Of a DNA stretch of 64,000 nt, positions 37,004-46,600 are shown one piece after another. The DNA is from an uncultured virus (IMG/VR IMGVR_UViG_3300032270_000355). Lineage: Duplodnaviria > Heunggongvirae > Uroviricota > Caudoviricetes. The notes under the pieces are model-generated. The model searched no databases, was not told the origin of the DNA, and saw only the letters and a program-made list of their open reading frames with translations. The stretch's first letter is position 1. Each line of letters opens with the position of its first letter. The DNA is taken from IMG/VR virus record IMGVR_UViG_3300032270_000355, one strand, 5' to 3'. The position numbers and the translations under genes were made by a program.

Positions 37004-37339
37004 TTAAATTTGTGTAATTTGTGGGTTAACTGTGACAACTCCCTCGACTACTCTGGTTTTTGTACCAGATGGAGAAGTTATCTCTACGTCATAAAGCCAG
37101 CGTCCAGCTGGAATACTAGCAGATTGTACGTCTGTTAATTGAAGTCTAACCTTCCCAGAAGCTGCTAAGTATATACTTGATGTGAAATTATAGGATGTGC
37201 TGGACTGATATGACTTTCTCATTTGAGAAGCCACAGTATATCCAGTCAAATCGAGTGCTTGACCATTGGATGCGGATACAGTAATTATATTGCTGTAGTT
37301 AGCCCCAGCGTCAACGAATAGATTACTAACAGTCGCCAT
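37004..37339 (-). CDS. Small Ig-like virion protein (BppU-N/LtfC-like fibre adaptor, putative)
   Basis: NLFVDAGANY...DLTGYTVASQMRKSY...GRWLYDVEI...RVVEGVVTVNP, a pattern I recognise from T4-like phage structural ORFs. Confidence 0.7.
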   Translation of the reverse strand: MATVSNLFVDAGANYSNIITVSASNGQALDLTGYTVASQMRKSYQSSTSYNFTSSIYLAASGKVRLQLTDVQSASIPAGRWLYDVEITSPSGTKTRVVEGVVTVNPQITQI

Positions 37340-37401: not shown

Positions 37402-38445
37402 TTAGTCGATCAGAACATTATGGAAATCGTCTAGTAAAAACAGCCACTGAGGACGTTGGACGTTCATGTTTGATATTTTCTTTGATTTGTTTAAAGCATA
37501 ATCTCGTTCTCCGAATTCCTCGGACAGGATTTGCCTCATTTGCCAACGATGTGTATTGGAATTCCCACGAACTTTGGTGAAGGGTTCTTTAGTAGTCATA
37601 GCCCAGCGTTGGAGATCTTCAGAATCGAAAAACGCATGCATCTTTTTAGTCTTTTCTACCTGAAGCATTGTTCTATGTTCGTATAATCCAGTGTACCAGT
37701 CTAGATTAAAAATGCAATACCATCTCAAATCGGCGACTGTTTCAATTTTCCTATAAGAATTTTTTATCATTGGATCTAGAAATTGTAATAGTTTAGGATC
37801 TATGTTATTCTCATAAGATTCATGTATAGTTTCTGGAGTACCAAGAGTATGGTGGAACATGGCAGTTCCACCAGTTGCAAACATATCATCAGTTGGTCCA
37901 AATAACTGATTCCCACCCATGCCACTGACAAAAATACAATCATTTACATTGAATGAAAATTCATTATCTGTTGGTTCTAAGATAGTGTAAGGAAATTCAT
38001 TCTTCAATCTTCTATCAAACATATCACCAGATTCTACTATAGAATTTAATGTACCCCAAACTCTAACCTGATCGGGATCGTTGGAAAATTTCTTTAACAT
38101 GAATAAAACAAATGTACTATCAATTCCACCAGACCAAAGTACATGTACTACTTTATTAAGGCTTAGAAGGTACTTTGCACGTTCTTCACATACTTGATAA
38201 AATGATTTATTAAAAGAAATGCCCACCTCTGGTATTGGGTGAGCATCTTTTGCAATATTTAAATAATGCGGTATCTGTAGAGACCTATCAAACACCATAT
38301 TATGTTTGTTTAGTCCAAATTGTTCATACTGTTTAAACAACTCAGATGAATAATTTTCAGAAAGAAATGGTGAGATCGCTTGTGGATCTTTCTGGATTAA
38401 TTCTGGTACTTGTTTTTTATTATAATATAAAATTTGTGGTTTCAT
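37402..38445 (-). CDS. PP-loop ATP pyrophosphatase, asparagine-synthetase C-terminal-domain-like (no glutaminase domain)
   Basis: VLWSGGIDST PP-loop; FVSGMGGNQLFG (compare GxGGDELFG); AFFD, RWQMRQIL and KSK motifs late in the protein. Confidence 0.7.
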   Translation of the reverse strand: MKPQILYYNKKQVPELIQKDPQAISPFLSENYSSELFKQYEQFGLNKHNMVFDRSLQIPHYLNIAKDAHPIPEVGISFNKSFYQVCEERAKYLLSLNKVVHVLWSGGIDSTFVLFMLKKFSNDPDQVRVWGTLNSIVESGDMFDRRLKNEFPYTILEPTDNEFSFNVNDCIFVSGMGGNQLFGPTDDMFATGGTAMFHHTLGTPETIHESYENNIDPKLLQFLDPMIKNSYRKIETVADLRWYCIFNLDWYTGLYEHRTMLQVEKTKKMHAFFDSEDLQRWAMTTKEPFTKVRGNSNTHRWQMRQILSEEFGERDYALNKSKKISNMNVQRPQWLFLLDDFHNVLID

Positions 38446-38509: not shown

Positions 38510-39457
38510 TTAATGAGACTTAATGCTCTTGACTAATCCATCACTAAAGGAAGCCTCAAATCTATCATGGAGAGGAGTCAATAGATCTTGCATCTTTTTC
38601 TGTTCAGATTTAGACATAGAGATAACTTCAACTTTTTCAGCTTTACATTGATCTAAAATATTTGGAATATCTGCAACAGATTCTTTACGTTCTGCCTTTG
38701 CTGCATTAAATGCTGCTTCAGACATGATCTGTTTAGTTTCATCGTCAAACTGATTGAAGAAAGCCTCATTGACAATGATAGAAGTCAAGAACAAACTGTG
38801 TGCAGTATCATTAACATACTTGAAAGATTTGTTTTGTTGTAGTGGGAAAATACGAACATAAGTTGATTCACCTGCATCGATGTTTCCACGATCGGCTTGT
38901 TCATTCATTTGTTCTAATTCGATATTAGGATTTGCAATTGCACCAAGTGTTTCGAAAGTTGCTTGGGCTACTGGGCTAGAACTAATTCTAACTTTTTTAC
39001 CCTTCCAAGATTCAATCGTATCTGCTTTAAAATTAGCAGGAACAACACGATATCCACCAGAATATGTAAATGCCATTGCTTTGATCTGAGAGTTTTTCTC
39101 AACGCCAGCTAACAAATCAGCACCGATTGGACCATCAAGAATAGCATCAGCATGATCGTGATCTCTAAACAAAAATGGTAAATCTAAAACATTAAGATCT
39201 GGATTAATATCTGCGAGCCAAGTTGTATAGATGTGACCCATCTCAACTTGTCCAGAACCAACTAAATCCATCATAGATCGTTTTGTTAGTTGTTTACCGA
39301 AGTTGTACTTTTGAGAATACTCAGTCAATGAGAGGATCTCAACATTAAATTTTCCATTAGTTCTCTCATTAACTTCTTTGGAAAATGCTTCGGCTACCTT
39401 CAAAAATAAACCAATAGGCTCATGAGCAATAACCCATTTTATATTTTTAACTGTCAT
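38510..39457 (-). CDS. TRAP transporter solute-binding protein (DctP family), no signal peptide
   Basis: FSKEVNERTNGKFNVEI, GQVEMG, VLDLPFLFRDHDHA, GKKVR, FETLGA, GNIDAGES, TAHS; GGAG SD before the ATG. Confidence 0.85.
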   Translation of the reverse strand: MTVKNIKWVIAHEPIGLFLKVAEAFSKEVNERTNGKFNVEILSLTEYSQKYNFGKQLTKRSMMDLVGSGQVEMGHIYTTWLADINPDLNVLDLPFLFRDHDHADAILDGPIGADLLAGVEKNSQIKAMAFTYSGGYRVVPANFKADTIESWKGKKVRISSSPVAQATFETLGAIANPNIELEQMNEQADRGNIDAGESTYVRIFPLQQNKSFKYVNDTAHSLFLTSIIVNEAFFNQFDDETKQIMSEAAFNAAKAERKESVADIPNILDQCKAEKVEVISMSKSEQKKMQDLLTPLHDRFEASFSDGLVKSIKSH

Positions 39458-39761
39458 TTTTTAGTTCTCCTAATTTGCTGGTATCAAAAGACCAGACTTG
39501 TGTTTGGTTCTGAAAATTTAAGGTTCTTTTCAAGAAAGCCACCTTATTATTTATAAGATCTGTAATTGTATTTAGGTCAATCTCATCTTTATTTATAACA
39601 GATTGTAGTGGTATTAGACTGTCTCTGTATCCATATTCTTTGGTATTACTATCAAATTCAAATACTTCTTTGACTGTATAGTGTTCAGTAGAACCATTAA
39701 ACCCTACAATTCGTGGAAACTGATTCATTTCTAACACATAACCTTTGAAGAAACTACTCAT
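39447..39761 (-). CDS. Hypothetical protein (104 aa)
   Basis: Overlaps both neighbours (ATGA with the radical SAM gene), consistent with operon membership. Confidence 0.65.
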   Translation of the reverse strand: MSSFFKGYVLEMNQFPRIVGFNGSTEHYTVKEVFEFDSNTKEYGYRDSLIPLQSVINKDEIDLNTITDLINNKVAFLKRTLNFQNQTQVWSFDTSKLGELKNDS

Positions 39762-41218: not shown

Positions 41219-42142
41219 TTATAATACTTTAGTGAATTCTGTTGCATTAGTCCAATATTTAAAACCAAGTTTAACTTTAACTACATCACCTGTATCCATA
41301 CCAGTTGTAACTACCTTAAAAGATCCAGCACCATTAGTTACTGGAATTTTTAGTTTCGGTAGATAACCTTGAGACTGAACCAAAAAAATGTTATTCATTT
41401 TTGAATCTGTTGTAAAATTAACTGTAACTATATCACCCGATACTGTTGAAGAAGTTACAGTTATTTTTGGAATAAGATAGTCTTTCACCAACATTACAAC
41501 AGGATCATCTGGATGTTTAGTTAAATTACCTGTAACAGTTACTCTATGATCACCTTGTGGTTTTGGTACCATACCAGTTAATGCCATTTCTGGTAAAATT
41601 GAATCATAATCAGGATCTGTACTAACTATAGGTCTAATAATTGCAACTATAATATCTTCAGCAGTTGGATTATCTTTAGTTGACCAAAATACTATTAAAG
41701 ATTGGTTTCCAAAAATAGTAAACTGTTTAGCTGGTAAAGTCAATGCTAGTGAATTTACTAAATTTTGTTTGGTGATAATTCGTTCATCTGCATCACCTGA
41801 CGTGTTTAGATTTTTTAAAACTTCTTCATCTTTAATATACCAAAGTGTGCATGCTTCAGCATCACTAAAATGTGCCATATCTATAGAAAAATTATTAATT
41901 ATTCTATTATTTTCAGTCACATTAATAAACTTAACCTTTAAGATATTATTAGTTAAATTCAAATCCCACTTAAAATCAAATGGTAATTCATCTGTAGTAT
42001 AAGAACTTCCATCTAAGGGACTAGTTGAAGTTGCAGTTTCTGGAGCCAGTTTCTGAACAGTTGGAGCGAAATGGTAGTCGATAGCATTAAGACTTGCGTC
42101 TGTATATCTACCTCTATGTTGTTTCTTTGTAATATATAACAT
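41219..42142 (-). CDS. Hypothetical protein, C-terminal beta-sandwich-like region
   Basis: 307 aa; C-terminal GYLPKLKIPVTNGAGSFKVVTTGMDTGDVVKVKLGFKYW; lies between the fibre and the radical SAM gene. Confidence 0.7.
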   Translation of the reverse strand: MLYITKKQHRGRYTDASLNAIDYHFAPTVQKLAPETATSTSPLDGSSYTTDELPFDFKWDLNLTNNILKVKFINVTENNRIINNFSIDMAHFSDAEACTLWYIKDEEVLKNLNTSGDADERIITKQNLVNSLALTLPAKQFTIFGNQSLIVFWSTKDNPTAEDIIVAIIRPIVSTDPDYDSILPEMALTGMVPKPQGDHRVTVTGNLTKHPDDPVVMLVKDYLIPKITVTSSTVSGDIVTVNFTTDSKMNNIFLVQSQGYLPKLKIPVTNGAGSFKVVTTGMDTGDVVKVKLGFKYWTNATEFTKVL

Positions 42143-42155
42143 TTAATAATTTTCC

Positions 42156-43367
42156 TTAGCAGTTACAATTGCAGTTGCTACAATTATAATTATGGTGGTG
42201 AGGATCAAAGTGATGGCTGTTATCTAAGTGCATGCGTTGTAGACAATTGATCGTATGCTGTCCGCAGTTACCTTGACTTGAGTGACCAGCATTACGACCC
42301 CAACTAGTTGCGATGTTGGGGTTAGCATGTTTAGTATTATGTGGAACCCAACCACCATAGTTACCTAAGTCATTGGCAAATTGAGATAAGTGGTGTGGAC
42401 GACCTTGAACCTGAGACCATGGAGTATACTGAGCATGGTGTGAGAACTGAGAAGTATGTGCAGCATGTGCGTTGCTGGTAGACGCAGAAGAACCAGCAAT
42501 ATTAGAAACAATAACCGCACCAGTATTACCCTGAACAGAAGTAACAGGAACTGAAACGATTACGTTACCTGTATTACCCTGAACAGACAATACGTTTGCG
42601 GAGATAGTTGGGTTACCAGAAACGCCATCGCCGTTAGAAACAGAGATACCTGAACCAGCTGCAATTGATCTATTAACAGCAGTACCAGCACCAGTACGAA
42701 TATAAAGTCCATTACCAGCAACACCTGCAAGTGCAGCTAAGTTTGCCGCATAAGCCTGAACATCAGAGCCAATCGTTAAACCAAGTGTACCACGAGCAGT
42801 AGATGCATCAGCGTCATCGATAAGAGTACGACCATATGCAGAAAGAGTTGTAGTAGAAGCAGTACCCGCACCAGTAAAGTAAGGTAGTGCATTTGCTGCA
42901 GAAGTGGTAGAAGCCAACGCAGCTAGTTCACCATCATAAGCCTGAACATCAGAGCCGATTGCCAAACCTAAGTTAGATCTAGCAGATGCAGCAGTAGTAG
43001 CACCAGTACCACCACCAGCGATAGCCACTGTATAATTCAAGCTGGAAGCGATAGTCGCTGTGCCAGTTAACGCTGCAGTAATAGTACCAGCGGAGAAGTT
43101 ACCAGAAGCGTCACGAACAACAACAGTAGATGCTGTATTTGCTGAAGCAGTAGTCAGTCCATCAAGCAAGTCAGCGTCTAGACCAGATCCAGCACCATCA
43201 ACAGTAATTAGTTTGGCTAGAACATCAGCTGCGGTATAGCTGGCTGCAGTTAAACCAGTCGCAATGGCTGTGTTTAAGTTATTAAAGTTATTATCGACTT
43301 CTGTATTCGTAAGAGGACTACCCTTAGTCGATCTTAGCGTAATAGATGCGGATGTAATATTTGGCAT
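42156..43367 (-). CDS. Tail-fibre-like protein with His-rich, Asn-Cys-repeat C-terminus
   Basis: N-anchor [18 protein letters not shown]; fibre motifs [39 protein letters not shown] x2, SVQGNTG x2; ends [14 protein letters not shown]. Confidence 0.8.
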
Positions 43368-43381
43368 TTAAGTTTCCTTAG

Positions 43382-43639
43382 TCAATCTTTTTTGTGCAAA
43401 AGCTGTAAAATAAGAGATTTTATGTCTTGCAGTTCGTTCTTCAATATATTTATGTCTTGCAGTTCGTTCTTCAATATATTTATGTCTTCTGTATGTTGAG
43501 AAATCTCTAACTCTCTCTGCTCAGCCATCTTTTTTCTGCTCATATAGGTTTCATATTCTGTTCTATTAGTATTTATAATGGCTCCAGTAGAGGTATCTCT
43601 AACTAAGCCATCATGTCCTTGAACTTTCAAATAATTCAT
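43382..43639 (-). CDS. Small coiled-coil protein typical of this position in T4-like phages
   Basis: MNYLKVQGHDGLVRDTSTGAIINTN...; real start most likely ATG 43639, just after the DUF4815 stop. Confidence 0.75.
   Translation of the reverse strand: MNYLKVQGHDGLVRDTSTGAIINTNRTEYETYMSRKKMAEQRELEISQHTEDINILKNELQDINILKNELQDIKSLILQLLHKKD
43419..43488. repeat. Perfect 30-bp tandem duplication (about 2.3 copies)
   Basis: TATGTCTTGCAGTTCGTTCTTCAATATATT at 43421 and 43451; encodes DINILKNELQ twice. Confidence 0.95.
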
Positions 43640-43640
43640 T

Positions 43641-46600
43641 TTATGCGCAGGCAATAACCCTAAAGTCTTTAATAATAGGAGTAGCAGAAGTATTAGCGGA
43701 CTGCATAACGATTTTAACTGCAATAGTATCGAATGGTGTCATATTGTTCATAGTATAGTCTACATCAGAGAATGCATAGTTTCCATTGTCGACTTTAATT
43801 ATCCCATTATTATCAGCGGAGGCTAGCGTATATCTAATAGTATCTAACTGTTTACTATCACCAAGACAAGTCTTATAGTAAACTTTGATATCAGCTTCAT
43901 TCGGGCAATTAACTCCAAGTTTAATTCTCACGAAACTAGAAGAATTTGCAAATTTAATAGGTGTTGTTACATACTTACTTAGCGAACTTCCTCCACGTGG
44001 GGCGATTTCATCGTAGAATAATTCTCTAACTGCAACATAGATTGCAGCAGAAGTCACTGTTTCTGCAGTGAATACAGTCCCAGAAACAGAATCTACATAA
44101 ACAGTTCCAGTAGTACCATTATCGCCATAACCAGTAACTATCCATGTTCCATTATTAGCTGAATTAGAAGAACCACCAGTAGTTAAGTATCTACCAATTC
44201 CCAAACCAGCCATTAATCCTCTAACAGTCGCATCAGTAGAAGTTATAGAAGATGCACTTCCAACCCACTGTAGAGTTGCTGTGCCATTTGTTGCCACACC
44301 ATATGTGTGGGTAGGTGCACTGACACTAGCAGTTCCTCCTACAGTACATAGGTAAAGTTTATTTCCATAATAGTACTGTGTTCCTTGAGTTAAGGATTGA
44401 GAGCCTGATAAAGTTAATAGAGTTCCAGTAATAGCATAGTTATATGATCCACCAGTAACTGCTACTGCCACACCACTATTTGGAACACCAGTAATAGTTC
44501 CAGCTGCTCCAGCAAACATTATTTTTGTATCTAAAGAAGCCACATTTGTATTAGATTCAGTAGGATAATTTAATTTATTTGAAACTAATACTGCACTAGA
44601 ACGAGCAGTATCGATAACAGGAGAAACTGCATTGTTTGTAGTAGAAATCTGACACAACAATTGTAGAGATTTTTCTCCACTCATATAAGTGTTTTCATTA
44701 ACCTCAGAAGCAACAACTCTTGTTTTGTCCCAAATGTTGTCAATATCAACTACAACTGGAGAATAAGAAGTATCTATAACATATGATGTTTGTGCTCCAT
44801 CAGGTGATGTTCCTGATGTTGTTTTCATAGAGAATTTTGCTAATGATTCACCGAAAGTTTGCATCTGCAAAGTTGGTTTAATTAAATCATATGCAATATT
44901 TCTAGAAGCCTTTAGTAAGTTACCACCAGAATAACCAGTAGAAGTAGCAACTGTACTAGTAGTTATTGTATAGCAATGAGCATCTACGTTAGCAATAACT
45001 TTAGTCGTATTAATTTCAGCGAATGGGATTCCATTAATATTAGAAGTCAATCCACTAAGTTGAACACTAGAACCAGAAGACATACCATGGTTAGGATGCC
45101 AAATTCTAATAACATTAGATCCAGTAACAGTTTGGATTGGGTTATTTTTCAATTGGTCATGAGGTAAAACATTATTCGTCATAACAATAGCACCAACCGT
45201 ATTTGTAGCAAATACAGCACGATGTATTGTAAATTTAATATCTTGATTTTGATCTGGTGTCCATGTAGAAGCATTCTGAGATTTGAACATTACACCAGCA
45301 TATGGTTGTTCAGAAATAGTTCTACTTGTTCCTGGGATGACATCACCCATATTAGAAATCCAAACTCTGTAATCATTTGAATCAGACTGAATAACAAATG
45401 CATACTCTTTACTGTCTTCTACGAAGACAGGAGATTCGAATGTGAATTTTGTTGCTGTGTTATAGTCTGCATAAGAATTACCATCAGGCAGAGCAACAGA
45501 TGTATATCCTGATGCTTCTGCAGTAGTTCCAGAAACAGGAGCATTAACCAAATCTGGATTTAAAGTTACACTACTGAATGGAAGAACCTGATGTGTTGGA
45601 TTACCGTTAACCATCTCACGAATATGAACAGTTACTGGAACATTTGCAGATTTAGTTGCAAAGAATAAATCAATACTTGTTAAGAATGCACCACCTCTTG
45701 ATTCTACATAAAATGATTGTGCAAGTGGATCTGTCCATGCTGGTGTTAAATCAGCAATAAGTCTGGTAGAAGTAGAACTACCACTTCTATTAACGACCTC
45801 ATAAGTATTAGGATCGCCAGCACGAGGATTAATCTGTTCTTGAACAATAGTAGAATTTCTAACAGCATTAACTATACCCTGAACAGTTTGAAGTGTTCCA
45901 GTGGCTTCATAAGTGCCGATTCCACGAGAAGTATAATTTCCTGTAGAAGTTGCAGAATCCATTAGTTTTAATGTAGACTTACCAGTACGGAAACGAACAG
46001 ATTCAGTATTTGGTATATTAAACAAGAAGTTTAATTCACCTGATTGATTTGTAGTTAATGTAGTATTAGTTGTTACCGAAACTACAGTTCCTGTTTGATT
46101 ACTAATAGATCCAGTAAATGTATTGCCTGAACTAAATGTTCCGATAATATTAACTAAATCAAGCGCATAAGATGTAGTACCATCATCATTATGTATTAAA
46201 TATTTACCAACAACTACTGCTGATGCAGAATTGTCTGATTTTGTTATTACGTCACCACGTGTTAAACAAACTTGTACGTCTGTACCGATTCTTCTTTTAA
46301 TGTCTGTGCTAGATCCACCGACATTAGTTGACGTATTCCAAAGTTTATGGTTTGCTGCTTTTAGACTTTCAGTAGAACCTGTTGGAGTATACACCAGTTT
46401 AGTAGTTGGAGTACAGTATGAATTTATATCAACTTCATTAAAATAAGCATAAAAGCGAGTAGATGGCTTTAATTGTTTGGATTGAACTAATACAAAACGT
46501 GATCGTACATAAGGAACGATAGAAGTTGATACTGTTCTATCACCAACTGACTCATAATCTGTTTTTGCTACTATAGAAGTTTTAGTACCATTTCTTGACT

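Follow-up and report, generated by a model that had tools for sequence, protein, structure and literature searches.

The tail fibre encoded in the window, the whole 64,000-nucleotide stretch of DNA that was analysed, ends in a tail of alternating Asn and Cys, and tails of this kind and a radical SAM/SPASM enzyme encoded close by nearly always occur together, whatever the phage lineage. The conserved feature of the fibre C-terminus is this (Asn-Cys)n tail and not the His residues of the tip, His richness being a local variant. We consider it likely that the enzyme, whose gene is the second one downstream of the fibre, takes this tail, carried behind a variable tip domain, as its substrate.

Fibre tip and C-terminal tail

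The genes around the fibre are all on the minus strand and form a T4-like myovirus structural module with gp5, gp6, gp25, gp53 and gp48-like baseplate proteins; by the gp6-like protein, the nearest named phages were Pelagibacter phages HTVC008M and Mosig and Methylophilales phage Melnitz, at about 40% identity. The search of named phages revealed no close relative of the fibre itself, the match being limited to a 68-residue segment of the body. The body (residues 1-300) was rich in Ala, Thr, Gly and Ser and contained no His and no Cys, and residues 301-403 (42467 down to 42159) contained 16 His and 6 Cys; the confinement of all 22 of these residues to the last 103 of the 403 has a hypergeometric p of 1.5e-14. 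Asn preceded each of the Cys residues (C368, 375, 396, 399, 401 and 403), an arrangement found in 1 of 200,000 shuffles of residues 301-403. The translation confirmed the His/Cys partition at residue 300 and the Asn before every Cys that had been read by the first-pass annotation, and the overlapping NxxC motifs that it had pointed out were present three times in the tail (N393-C396, N398-C401 and N400-C403, as read from the sequence). It had further likened one segment to a common fibre motif with small residues replaced by His. The likeness held, as W317-W340 fits W.x.V.GRPT(A/H)...(W/F), a motif repeated in many long fibres of a 1.8-billion-protein library, and the 'RPTA' of that motif is 'RPHH' in the window fibre; the replacement held in part, being limited to two positions since one of the two RPHH His is shared with other fibres (RPTHLSNF, RPGHLSQF). 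Among the real ORFs of the 64-kb window, none except the fibre carried an NC tail. No Pfam family, including the gp37 fibre-tip families, was found on the fibre, and the AlphaFold monomer of the 114-aa tip, built from a 15-sequence alignment, was uninformative (pLDDT 40, pTM 0.14).

Table 1. Coordinates of the features discussed (window positions; where a locus is named, positions are those of that locus).
Feature	Position	Strand	Remark
Tail fibre gene	42156..43367	minus	403 aa + stop; body matches tail-fibre PHROGs phrog_24210, 2097, 7389
His/Cys-rich tip, residues 301-403 + stop	42156..42467	minus	composition read from translation
Fibre repeat motif W317-W340 (24 residues)	42348..42419	minus	matches long fibres
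Terminal Asn-Cys tail N393-C403 (11 residues)	42159..42191	minus	abuts stop codon; proposed radical SAM substrate
DUF4815 (VrlC-like) structural protein, 2172 aa	43641..50159	minus	just upstream of fibre
307-aa protein	41219..42142	minus	homologues directly follow NC-tailed gene in 103/162 loci
Radical SAM/SPASM enzyme, 467 aa	39758..41161	minus	two genes downstream of fibre; TTG start, ATG at codon 5 possible
104-aa protein	39447..39761	minus	no known family; follows enzyme in close T4-like relatives
DctP-family (TRAP solute-binding) protein	38510..39457	minus	travels with enzyme in marine T4-like loci
347-aa protein	37402..38445	minus	PP-loop motif SGGIDS at residue 105; travels with enzyme in marine T4-like loci
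111-aa protein	37004..37339	minus	matches PHROGs named for tail fibre assembly
Fibres with internal tract + Hint	L002 3853-5304 (JWF gp028); L074 1784-2572; L102 3214-4356; L131 3745-5304
Split fibre + NC protein, example	L066 3287-4465 and 4452-4835
About 240-aa family members	L019 5285-5998; L053 5142-5867; L100 4213-4914; L105 5033-5779; L131 5210-6001; L002 5291-6013
PF13759-like ORFs	L019 4728-5303; L100 3581-4225; L048 4651-5349

The alignment of homologous fibre C-termini had been named as a check by the first-pass annotation, and it revealed conserved NC repeats and variable His positions. In particular, the invariant C-terminal columns of a 15-tip alignment were the Asn and Cys of the tail, and all 25 distinct tips of fibre-body homologues ended in at least three xC units, although the rule that every Cys follows Asn was true of 12 of the 25. 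The same tips contained at least eight His in 13 cases, three or fewer in 10 and none in 8. Fibre bodies of 65-75% identity bore unrelated tip sequences before the same tail, as would be expected if a receptor-binding tip diversifies while its terminal element stays constant.

T4 fibre tips are known to contain metal sites, and the needle of T4 gp37 is a trimeric His-rich fibre tip with HxH iron sites. Given 16 His and 6 Cys in 103 residues, and a 13-residue block that is kept among fibres with 66-98% identical bodies (and is limited to this sub-clade), the tip could be a plain metal-binding or disulfide site, as in trimeric fibre needles, the radical SAM enzyme then having another substrate. 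We regard this as very improbable, because the coupling of tail and enzyme described below was near-perfect in both directions, 10 of the 25 related tips kept the tail with three His or fewer, and the tip contained a single HxH. The gp37-like HxH iron site that had been suggested was not supported: H390/H392 is the only HxH, the His are not conserved among relatives as the tips with three or fewer show, and no gp37 family of Pfam was matched. A His/Asp metal site peculiar to the His-rich sub-clade may nevertheless exist and would be compatible with modification of the tail.

Among the 425 xC units of 85 distinct tails, from phage and bacterial loci, X was Asn in 312, Asp in 42 and Ala in 42. 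The peptide NCNCNC was encoded by 15 different codon combinations across loci, and the window tail mixed AAT with AAC and TGT with TGC and so is not a pure DNA repeat; read at the codon level, the Asn-Cys tail is under protein-level selection. These observations also concern the possibility that the tail reflects an assembly error or a frameshift, or is a slippage-prone repeat of the DNA with no role in the protein, a reading for which nothing speaks except the unusual look of the sequence. Since the same ending recurred in dozens of independent contigs, as 85 distinct tails, and with 15 synonymous spellings of NCNCNC, we rejected this reading and give it a negligible probability.

The last Cys was the exact end of the protein in 44 of the 85 distinct tails. 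In four fibres the Cys-alternating tract was internal, and a Hint (intein-like) domain started at its last Cys; the Hom_end_hint match of JWF gp028 (3e-12) was above the cutoff, and the Hint scores of the fibres at L074, L102 and L131 were below it. This arrangement suggests that Hint autoprocessing would free the internal tract as a C-terminus. As judged from the reading frames, the Asn-Cys tail is always C-terminal and free, or would become so by processing.

Two variant arrangements were also observed. In a sister T4-like lineage (L066-L082, L188, L199, L217), the fibre ended in a coiled ...IKEQQKTIKELTTRLE... segment, and the NC tracts, with up to nine xC units, were located on a separate 128-aa protein encoded next, so that the tip is split from the shaft. 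At three other loci (L054 3615-4552, L055 and L056 4023-5102), three tandem small genes (93-120 aa) preceded one enzyme gene, each ending in an NC-type tail and resembling the multiple precursor genes of RiPP clusters.

The radical SAM/SPASM enzyme and its coupling to the tail

The enzyme contained the CX3CX2C motif (C74, C78 and C81) as well as the seven Cys (C322, C341, C381, C384, C390, C394 and C406) of the SPASM motif tested, CX9-15GX4C ... CX2CX5CX3C ... C, which stands for two auxiliary clusters. Both sets of Cys were invariant in 14 of 14 aligned homologues. Additionally, the enzyme scored above the cutoffs of Pfam PF04055 (29.7 vs 29.5) and of the SPASM model TIGR04085 (32.1 vs 27), and by its motifs it has the complete three-cluster SPASM architecture.

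Homologues with 42-47% identity were found in Ralstonia phage RSP15 and in Achromobacter phages JWF and 2-1, and in RSP15 and JWF the enzyme gene was just downstream of annotated tail-fibre genes. The RSP15 fibre has the C-terminus ...NTNCQCGN, and the JWF fibre reads ...NCNCDCNCNCSC, with the Hint domain following directly. The forward search of viral contigs gave 80 further enzyme loci at 35-93% identity, for 82 phage loci altogether, and a second, independent search, of one genome per prokaryotic species, yielded another 80 loci, mostly from Burkholderiales such as Limnohabitans. A tail in the strict sense had three xC units or more, of which two or more were NC, and ended no more than 6 aa from the stop. 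In the viral contigs, 72 of the 1,232 ORFs upstream of the enzyme on its strand had the strict motif vs 1 of 3,730 other ORFs, and this lone background ORF was the opposite strand of the same repeat; in the bacterial genomes, the corresponding counts were 56 of 1,310 and 0 of 4,994. Counted by locus, an upstream strict tail was found at 66 of the 82 phage loci and at 56 of the 80 from bacterial genomes, against 1 of 8,724 other ORFs in both sets, all of these association counts including related loci and not being phylogenetically independent.

The 16 phage loci without the strict motif fell into three groups: six had short flanks, with less than 1,700 nt upstream (L003, L009, L016, L032, L065 and L078); eight had a looser Cys-alternating tract (L001, L002, L053, L061, L074, L079, L080 and L081); and two, L037 and L048, had no tail in the available upstream flank. 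The L048 flank begins with a gene of the 307-aa family, so its tail gene may lie outside the flank. The 80 bacterial-genome loci were composed of 56 with a strict tail, 5 with a looser one, 2 with none within the available flank (L119 and L152) and 17 with less than 2,500 nt upstream. Over both sets, the 85 distinct tails were carried by proteins of 92 to 1,082 aa in T4-like myoviruses, the siphovirus JWF, Ralstonia phage RSP15 and Burkholderiales prophages.

The coupling was also examined in reverse, by a search of viral contigs with residues 1-300 of the fibre body only. A total of 81 loci were examined, covering 80 of 362 fibre homologues, and the 41 in which the ORF was complete and the downstream sequence reached at least 4 kb were scored, the tail class including a separate small NC-tailed protein just downstream. 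Tail and enzyme were both present at 23 of these loci and both absent from 18, with none discordant, although the relatedness of the loci means that these counts overstate the number of independent events. Eight loci had a tail without an enzyme, and all of them had less than 1,100 nt of downstream sequence. One locus with neither (L193) encoded a body 61% identical over residues 1-257; most other negatives were more distant fibres that matched the middle of the body only.

Because the coupling held whichever of the two partners was searched with, and in unrelated carriers and types of phage, we consider it highly likely, on this genomic evidence, that the enzyme acts on the Asn-Cys tail. The claim that the tip is a modification target, one of the two readings offered by the first-pass annotation, is strongly supported by the radical SAM/SPASM enzyme two genes downstream, which tracks Asn-Cys tails across phages and prophages, and the fibre tip is probably chemically modified.

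Other genes of the cassette

The order downstream of the fibre was the 307-aa protein, the enzyme, the 104-aa protein, the DctP-family protein, the 347-aa protein and the 111-aa protein. The 307-aa protein had no PHROG match and none above cutoff in Pfam or NCBIfam, and its atlas matches were below meaningful scores; its relatives shared a conserved C-terminal GDxxxVKxGF-like end, and it may be a partner or a chaperone of the tip. In the DctP-like protein, the first domain strand begins only about 6 residues after the start, so that there is no signal peptide. Besides SGGIDS, the 347-aa protein revealed only faint QueC/Asn-synthase hints. Both proteins accompanied the enzyme in marine T4-like loci over the range of 35-93% enzyme identity, including L013 with its rearranged gene order, and were absent from the Burkholderiales loci. 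Pelagimyophages, according to the available part of their description, carry fibres and radical SAM cassettes downstream of VrlC in a host-recognition cluster, the cassettes being left without an explanation. In the paper on cyanophage S-SCSM2R, a radical SAM maturase was termed an 'antibiotic synthesis gene'.

Further genes were noted beside these. A family of about 240 aa, with no known domain and a conserved LEKQVDLL-like helix, was encoded immediately upstream of the enzyme in Burkholderiales-type cassettes, including JWF gp029, and was not present in the window. Some cassettes contained weak matches, below cutoff, to the 2OG-Fe(II) oxygenase family PF13759, and by this similarity these ORFs could be additional tailoring enzymes. 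In the window, a 113-aa ORF listed at 43382-43723 (minus strand) has a TTG start and overlaps the 2172-aa gene at its end. Its PHROG match (virion structural protein) starts at residue 29, at an ATG immediately past the stop of the 2172-aa gene, which makes 43382-43639 the probable extent of the real gene.

Possible chemistry and its meaning for phage fibres

The best-scoring NCBIfam model for the enzyme was PapB (NF047865), at 50.5 vs a cutoff of 340, and the other named subfamilies were similarly far below their cutoffs: QhpD (TIGR03906), 41.6 vs 453; anSME (TIGR03942), 39.7 vs 349; the SCIFF maturase model, 29.8 vs 425; and TIGR04463, the CrpC family model, 26.2 vs 525. The reaction type was therefore not assigned by homology. 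A profile of the family matched the solved structures of TigE (8VPO; 3.5e-19), anSME (1.2e-16) and CteB (5.5e-13), and anSME, aligned across enzyme residues 70-394, was the sole characterised family aligned over nearly the full length. The top Foldseek matches to the AlphaFold model of the enzyme (pLDDT 84) were the thioether-forming CteB (4.6e-12), anSME (3.5e-11) and TigE (1.9e-10), with ChlB also close and TM values of about 0.5. The N-terminus of the model contained three confident strands (7-14, 19-26 and 31-34) and no helices before the core, whereas a standard RiPP recognition element is a winged helix-turn-helix, and no recognition-element family of Pfam or NCBIfam matched the enzyme. 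We also read by hand, off the alignment, the six 'catalytic proximity' positions given in the available part of Precord et al., a rough reading with an inferred numbering offset: they were N/S, W, I/V, S, Q and N in the enzyme family, F, F, T, S, H and Q in CteB, and F, Q, Q, S, D and F in anSME. On this rough reading, the active-site residues appear somewhat nearer to CteB, yet of a type of their own, with Ser alone shared with anSME.

The enzyme might act on the tail by a chemistry other than thioether formation: it might oxidise Cys to formylglycine as anSME does, epimerise residues, form C-C cross-links or make a link via the free C-terminal carboxylate. The formylglycine former anSME aligns over nearly the full length and ranks with CteB in the fold search, and the modelled enzyme, like anSME, appears to be without a standard recognition element. 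For a carboxylate link speak the 44 of 85 tails that stop at the last Cys, the Hint domains that would free the end elsewhere, and the PP-loop protein (of a carboxylate-activating type) and DctP protein (of a carboxylate-binding type) that travel with the enzyme in T4-like loci. However, the sulfatase motif C/S-x-P/A-x-R is absent from the tail and the tip, the hand-read active site, rough as it is, argues against formylglycine by its single Ser in common with anSME, and the bias to Asn/Asp at X fits thioether acceptors. Taken together, we find these other chemistries rather unlikely.

SPASM enzymes that act on Cys-rich substrates are usually thioether formers. The xC units place Cys donors beside Asn (312/425) or Asp (42/425) and are encoded next to the enzyme, as is required of ranthionine substrates, whose acceptors are Asp, Asn, Glu or Thr, and known ranthionine acceptors include Asn and Asp (available parts of PMC8326336 and PMC13692751). 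For a Cys-Asn/Asp thioether cross-link as the product, which we infer to be the likeliest chemistry, the chances seem evenly balanced. In the proposed mechanism, while the fibre is being assembled in the reducing cytoplasm, Asn (or Asp) would lose a hydrogen to the enzyme, and this residue would then be joined to the neighbouring Cys sulfur in a ranthionine-type thioether, as by NxxcB, PapB, QhpD and CrpC. A floppy Cys-rich tail would in this way become a compact polycyclic cap, proof against oxidation and proteases, at the distal host-binding end of the fibre, and the cap may tie the three fibre chains together. The His cluster is part of one variety among the hypervariable receptor-binding tips, in which it may bind metal as well.

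Several known systems resemble parts of this proposal. One is CrpC/CrpA of Methanococcus voltae (Dieter et al. 2026, PMC13692751), in which, from the accessible portion of that paper, a three-cluster SPASM enzyme acts on a whole protein encoded next to it, in its Cys-rich C-terminal portion, instead of on a short peptide, with ranthionine cross-links indicated by mass spectrometry. In contrast to the fibre, this system is archaeal and not viral, the word 'phage' is absent from PMC13692751, the CrpA motifs in that portion are CAGM, CAVD and CPLV, and CrpC has a recognition element. NxxcB of Streptococcus orisratti links Cys23 to the beta-carbon of Asn20 (PMC8326336, accessible portion), and the likeness is one of substrate motif, NxxC being present three times in the window tail. 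The substrate NxxcA, as described there, is a small leader-containing peptide with one bridge, whereas here a 403-aa virion fibre is concerned, and four to nine alternating C-terminal units. QhpD and PapB each make several Cys-to-Asp/Glu thioethers (PMC8326336 and PMC13692751, in the portions available); both are SPASM enzymes like that of the window, and the QhpD substrate QhpC is a protein subunit, but the acceptors of QhpD and of PapB/freyrasin are acidic there and the freyrasin spacing is CX3D. The anSME structures (PDB 4K36-4K39) are similar in fold and over nearly the full sequence, and anSME acts on the Cys of a folded protein without a recognition element; it differs in making formylglycine within a motif that the window tail lacks. 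The 'rSAM module' of Thermus phages, described in a preprint, was set aside as a different, DUF483-linked module that its authors propose to act on DNA.

A broader version of the proposal extends to many phage lineages, in which a SPASM enzyme would turn the constant free-C-terminal (Asn-Cys)n fibre tail into a poly-thioether ladder or cage, assisted in marine T4-like phages by the PP-loop ATPase and the signal-less DctP-type protein; the product may staple the three chains or, with the His cluster, form a cofactor-like metal site. We hold this version only tentatively and think it doubtful in its full extent.

Thioethers made by radical SAM enzymes are known in small peptide natural products and, among proteins of cells, in two: QhpC and CrpA. 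A full-text literature search, with most subscription journals outside its reach, found no radical SAM enzyme linked to Asn-Cys fibre tails. Such an enzyme is now tied to the receptor-binding end of tail fibres, from marine T4-like phages to Burkholderiales prophages. The constant tail would be an easy sequence marker by which to recognise the distal tip in fibres that are otherwise unannotatable, and for engineering, fibres of the Asn-Cys-tail class may need their own enzyme for folding or function. If the proposal is true, an enzymatic covalent maturation step would be added to phage fibre assembly, the radical SAM cassettes in the host-recognition clusters of pelagimyophages would be explained, and RiPP chemistry would be found building a virus particle and not an antibiotic.
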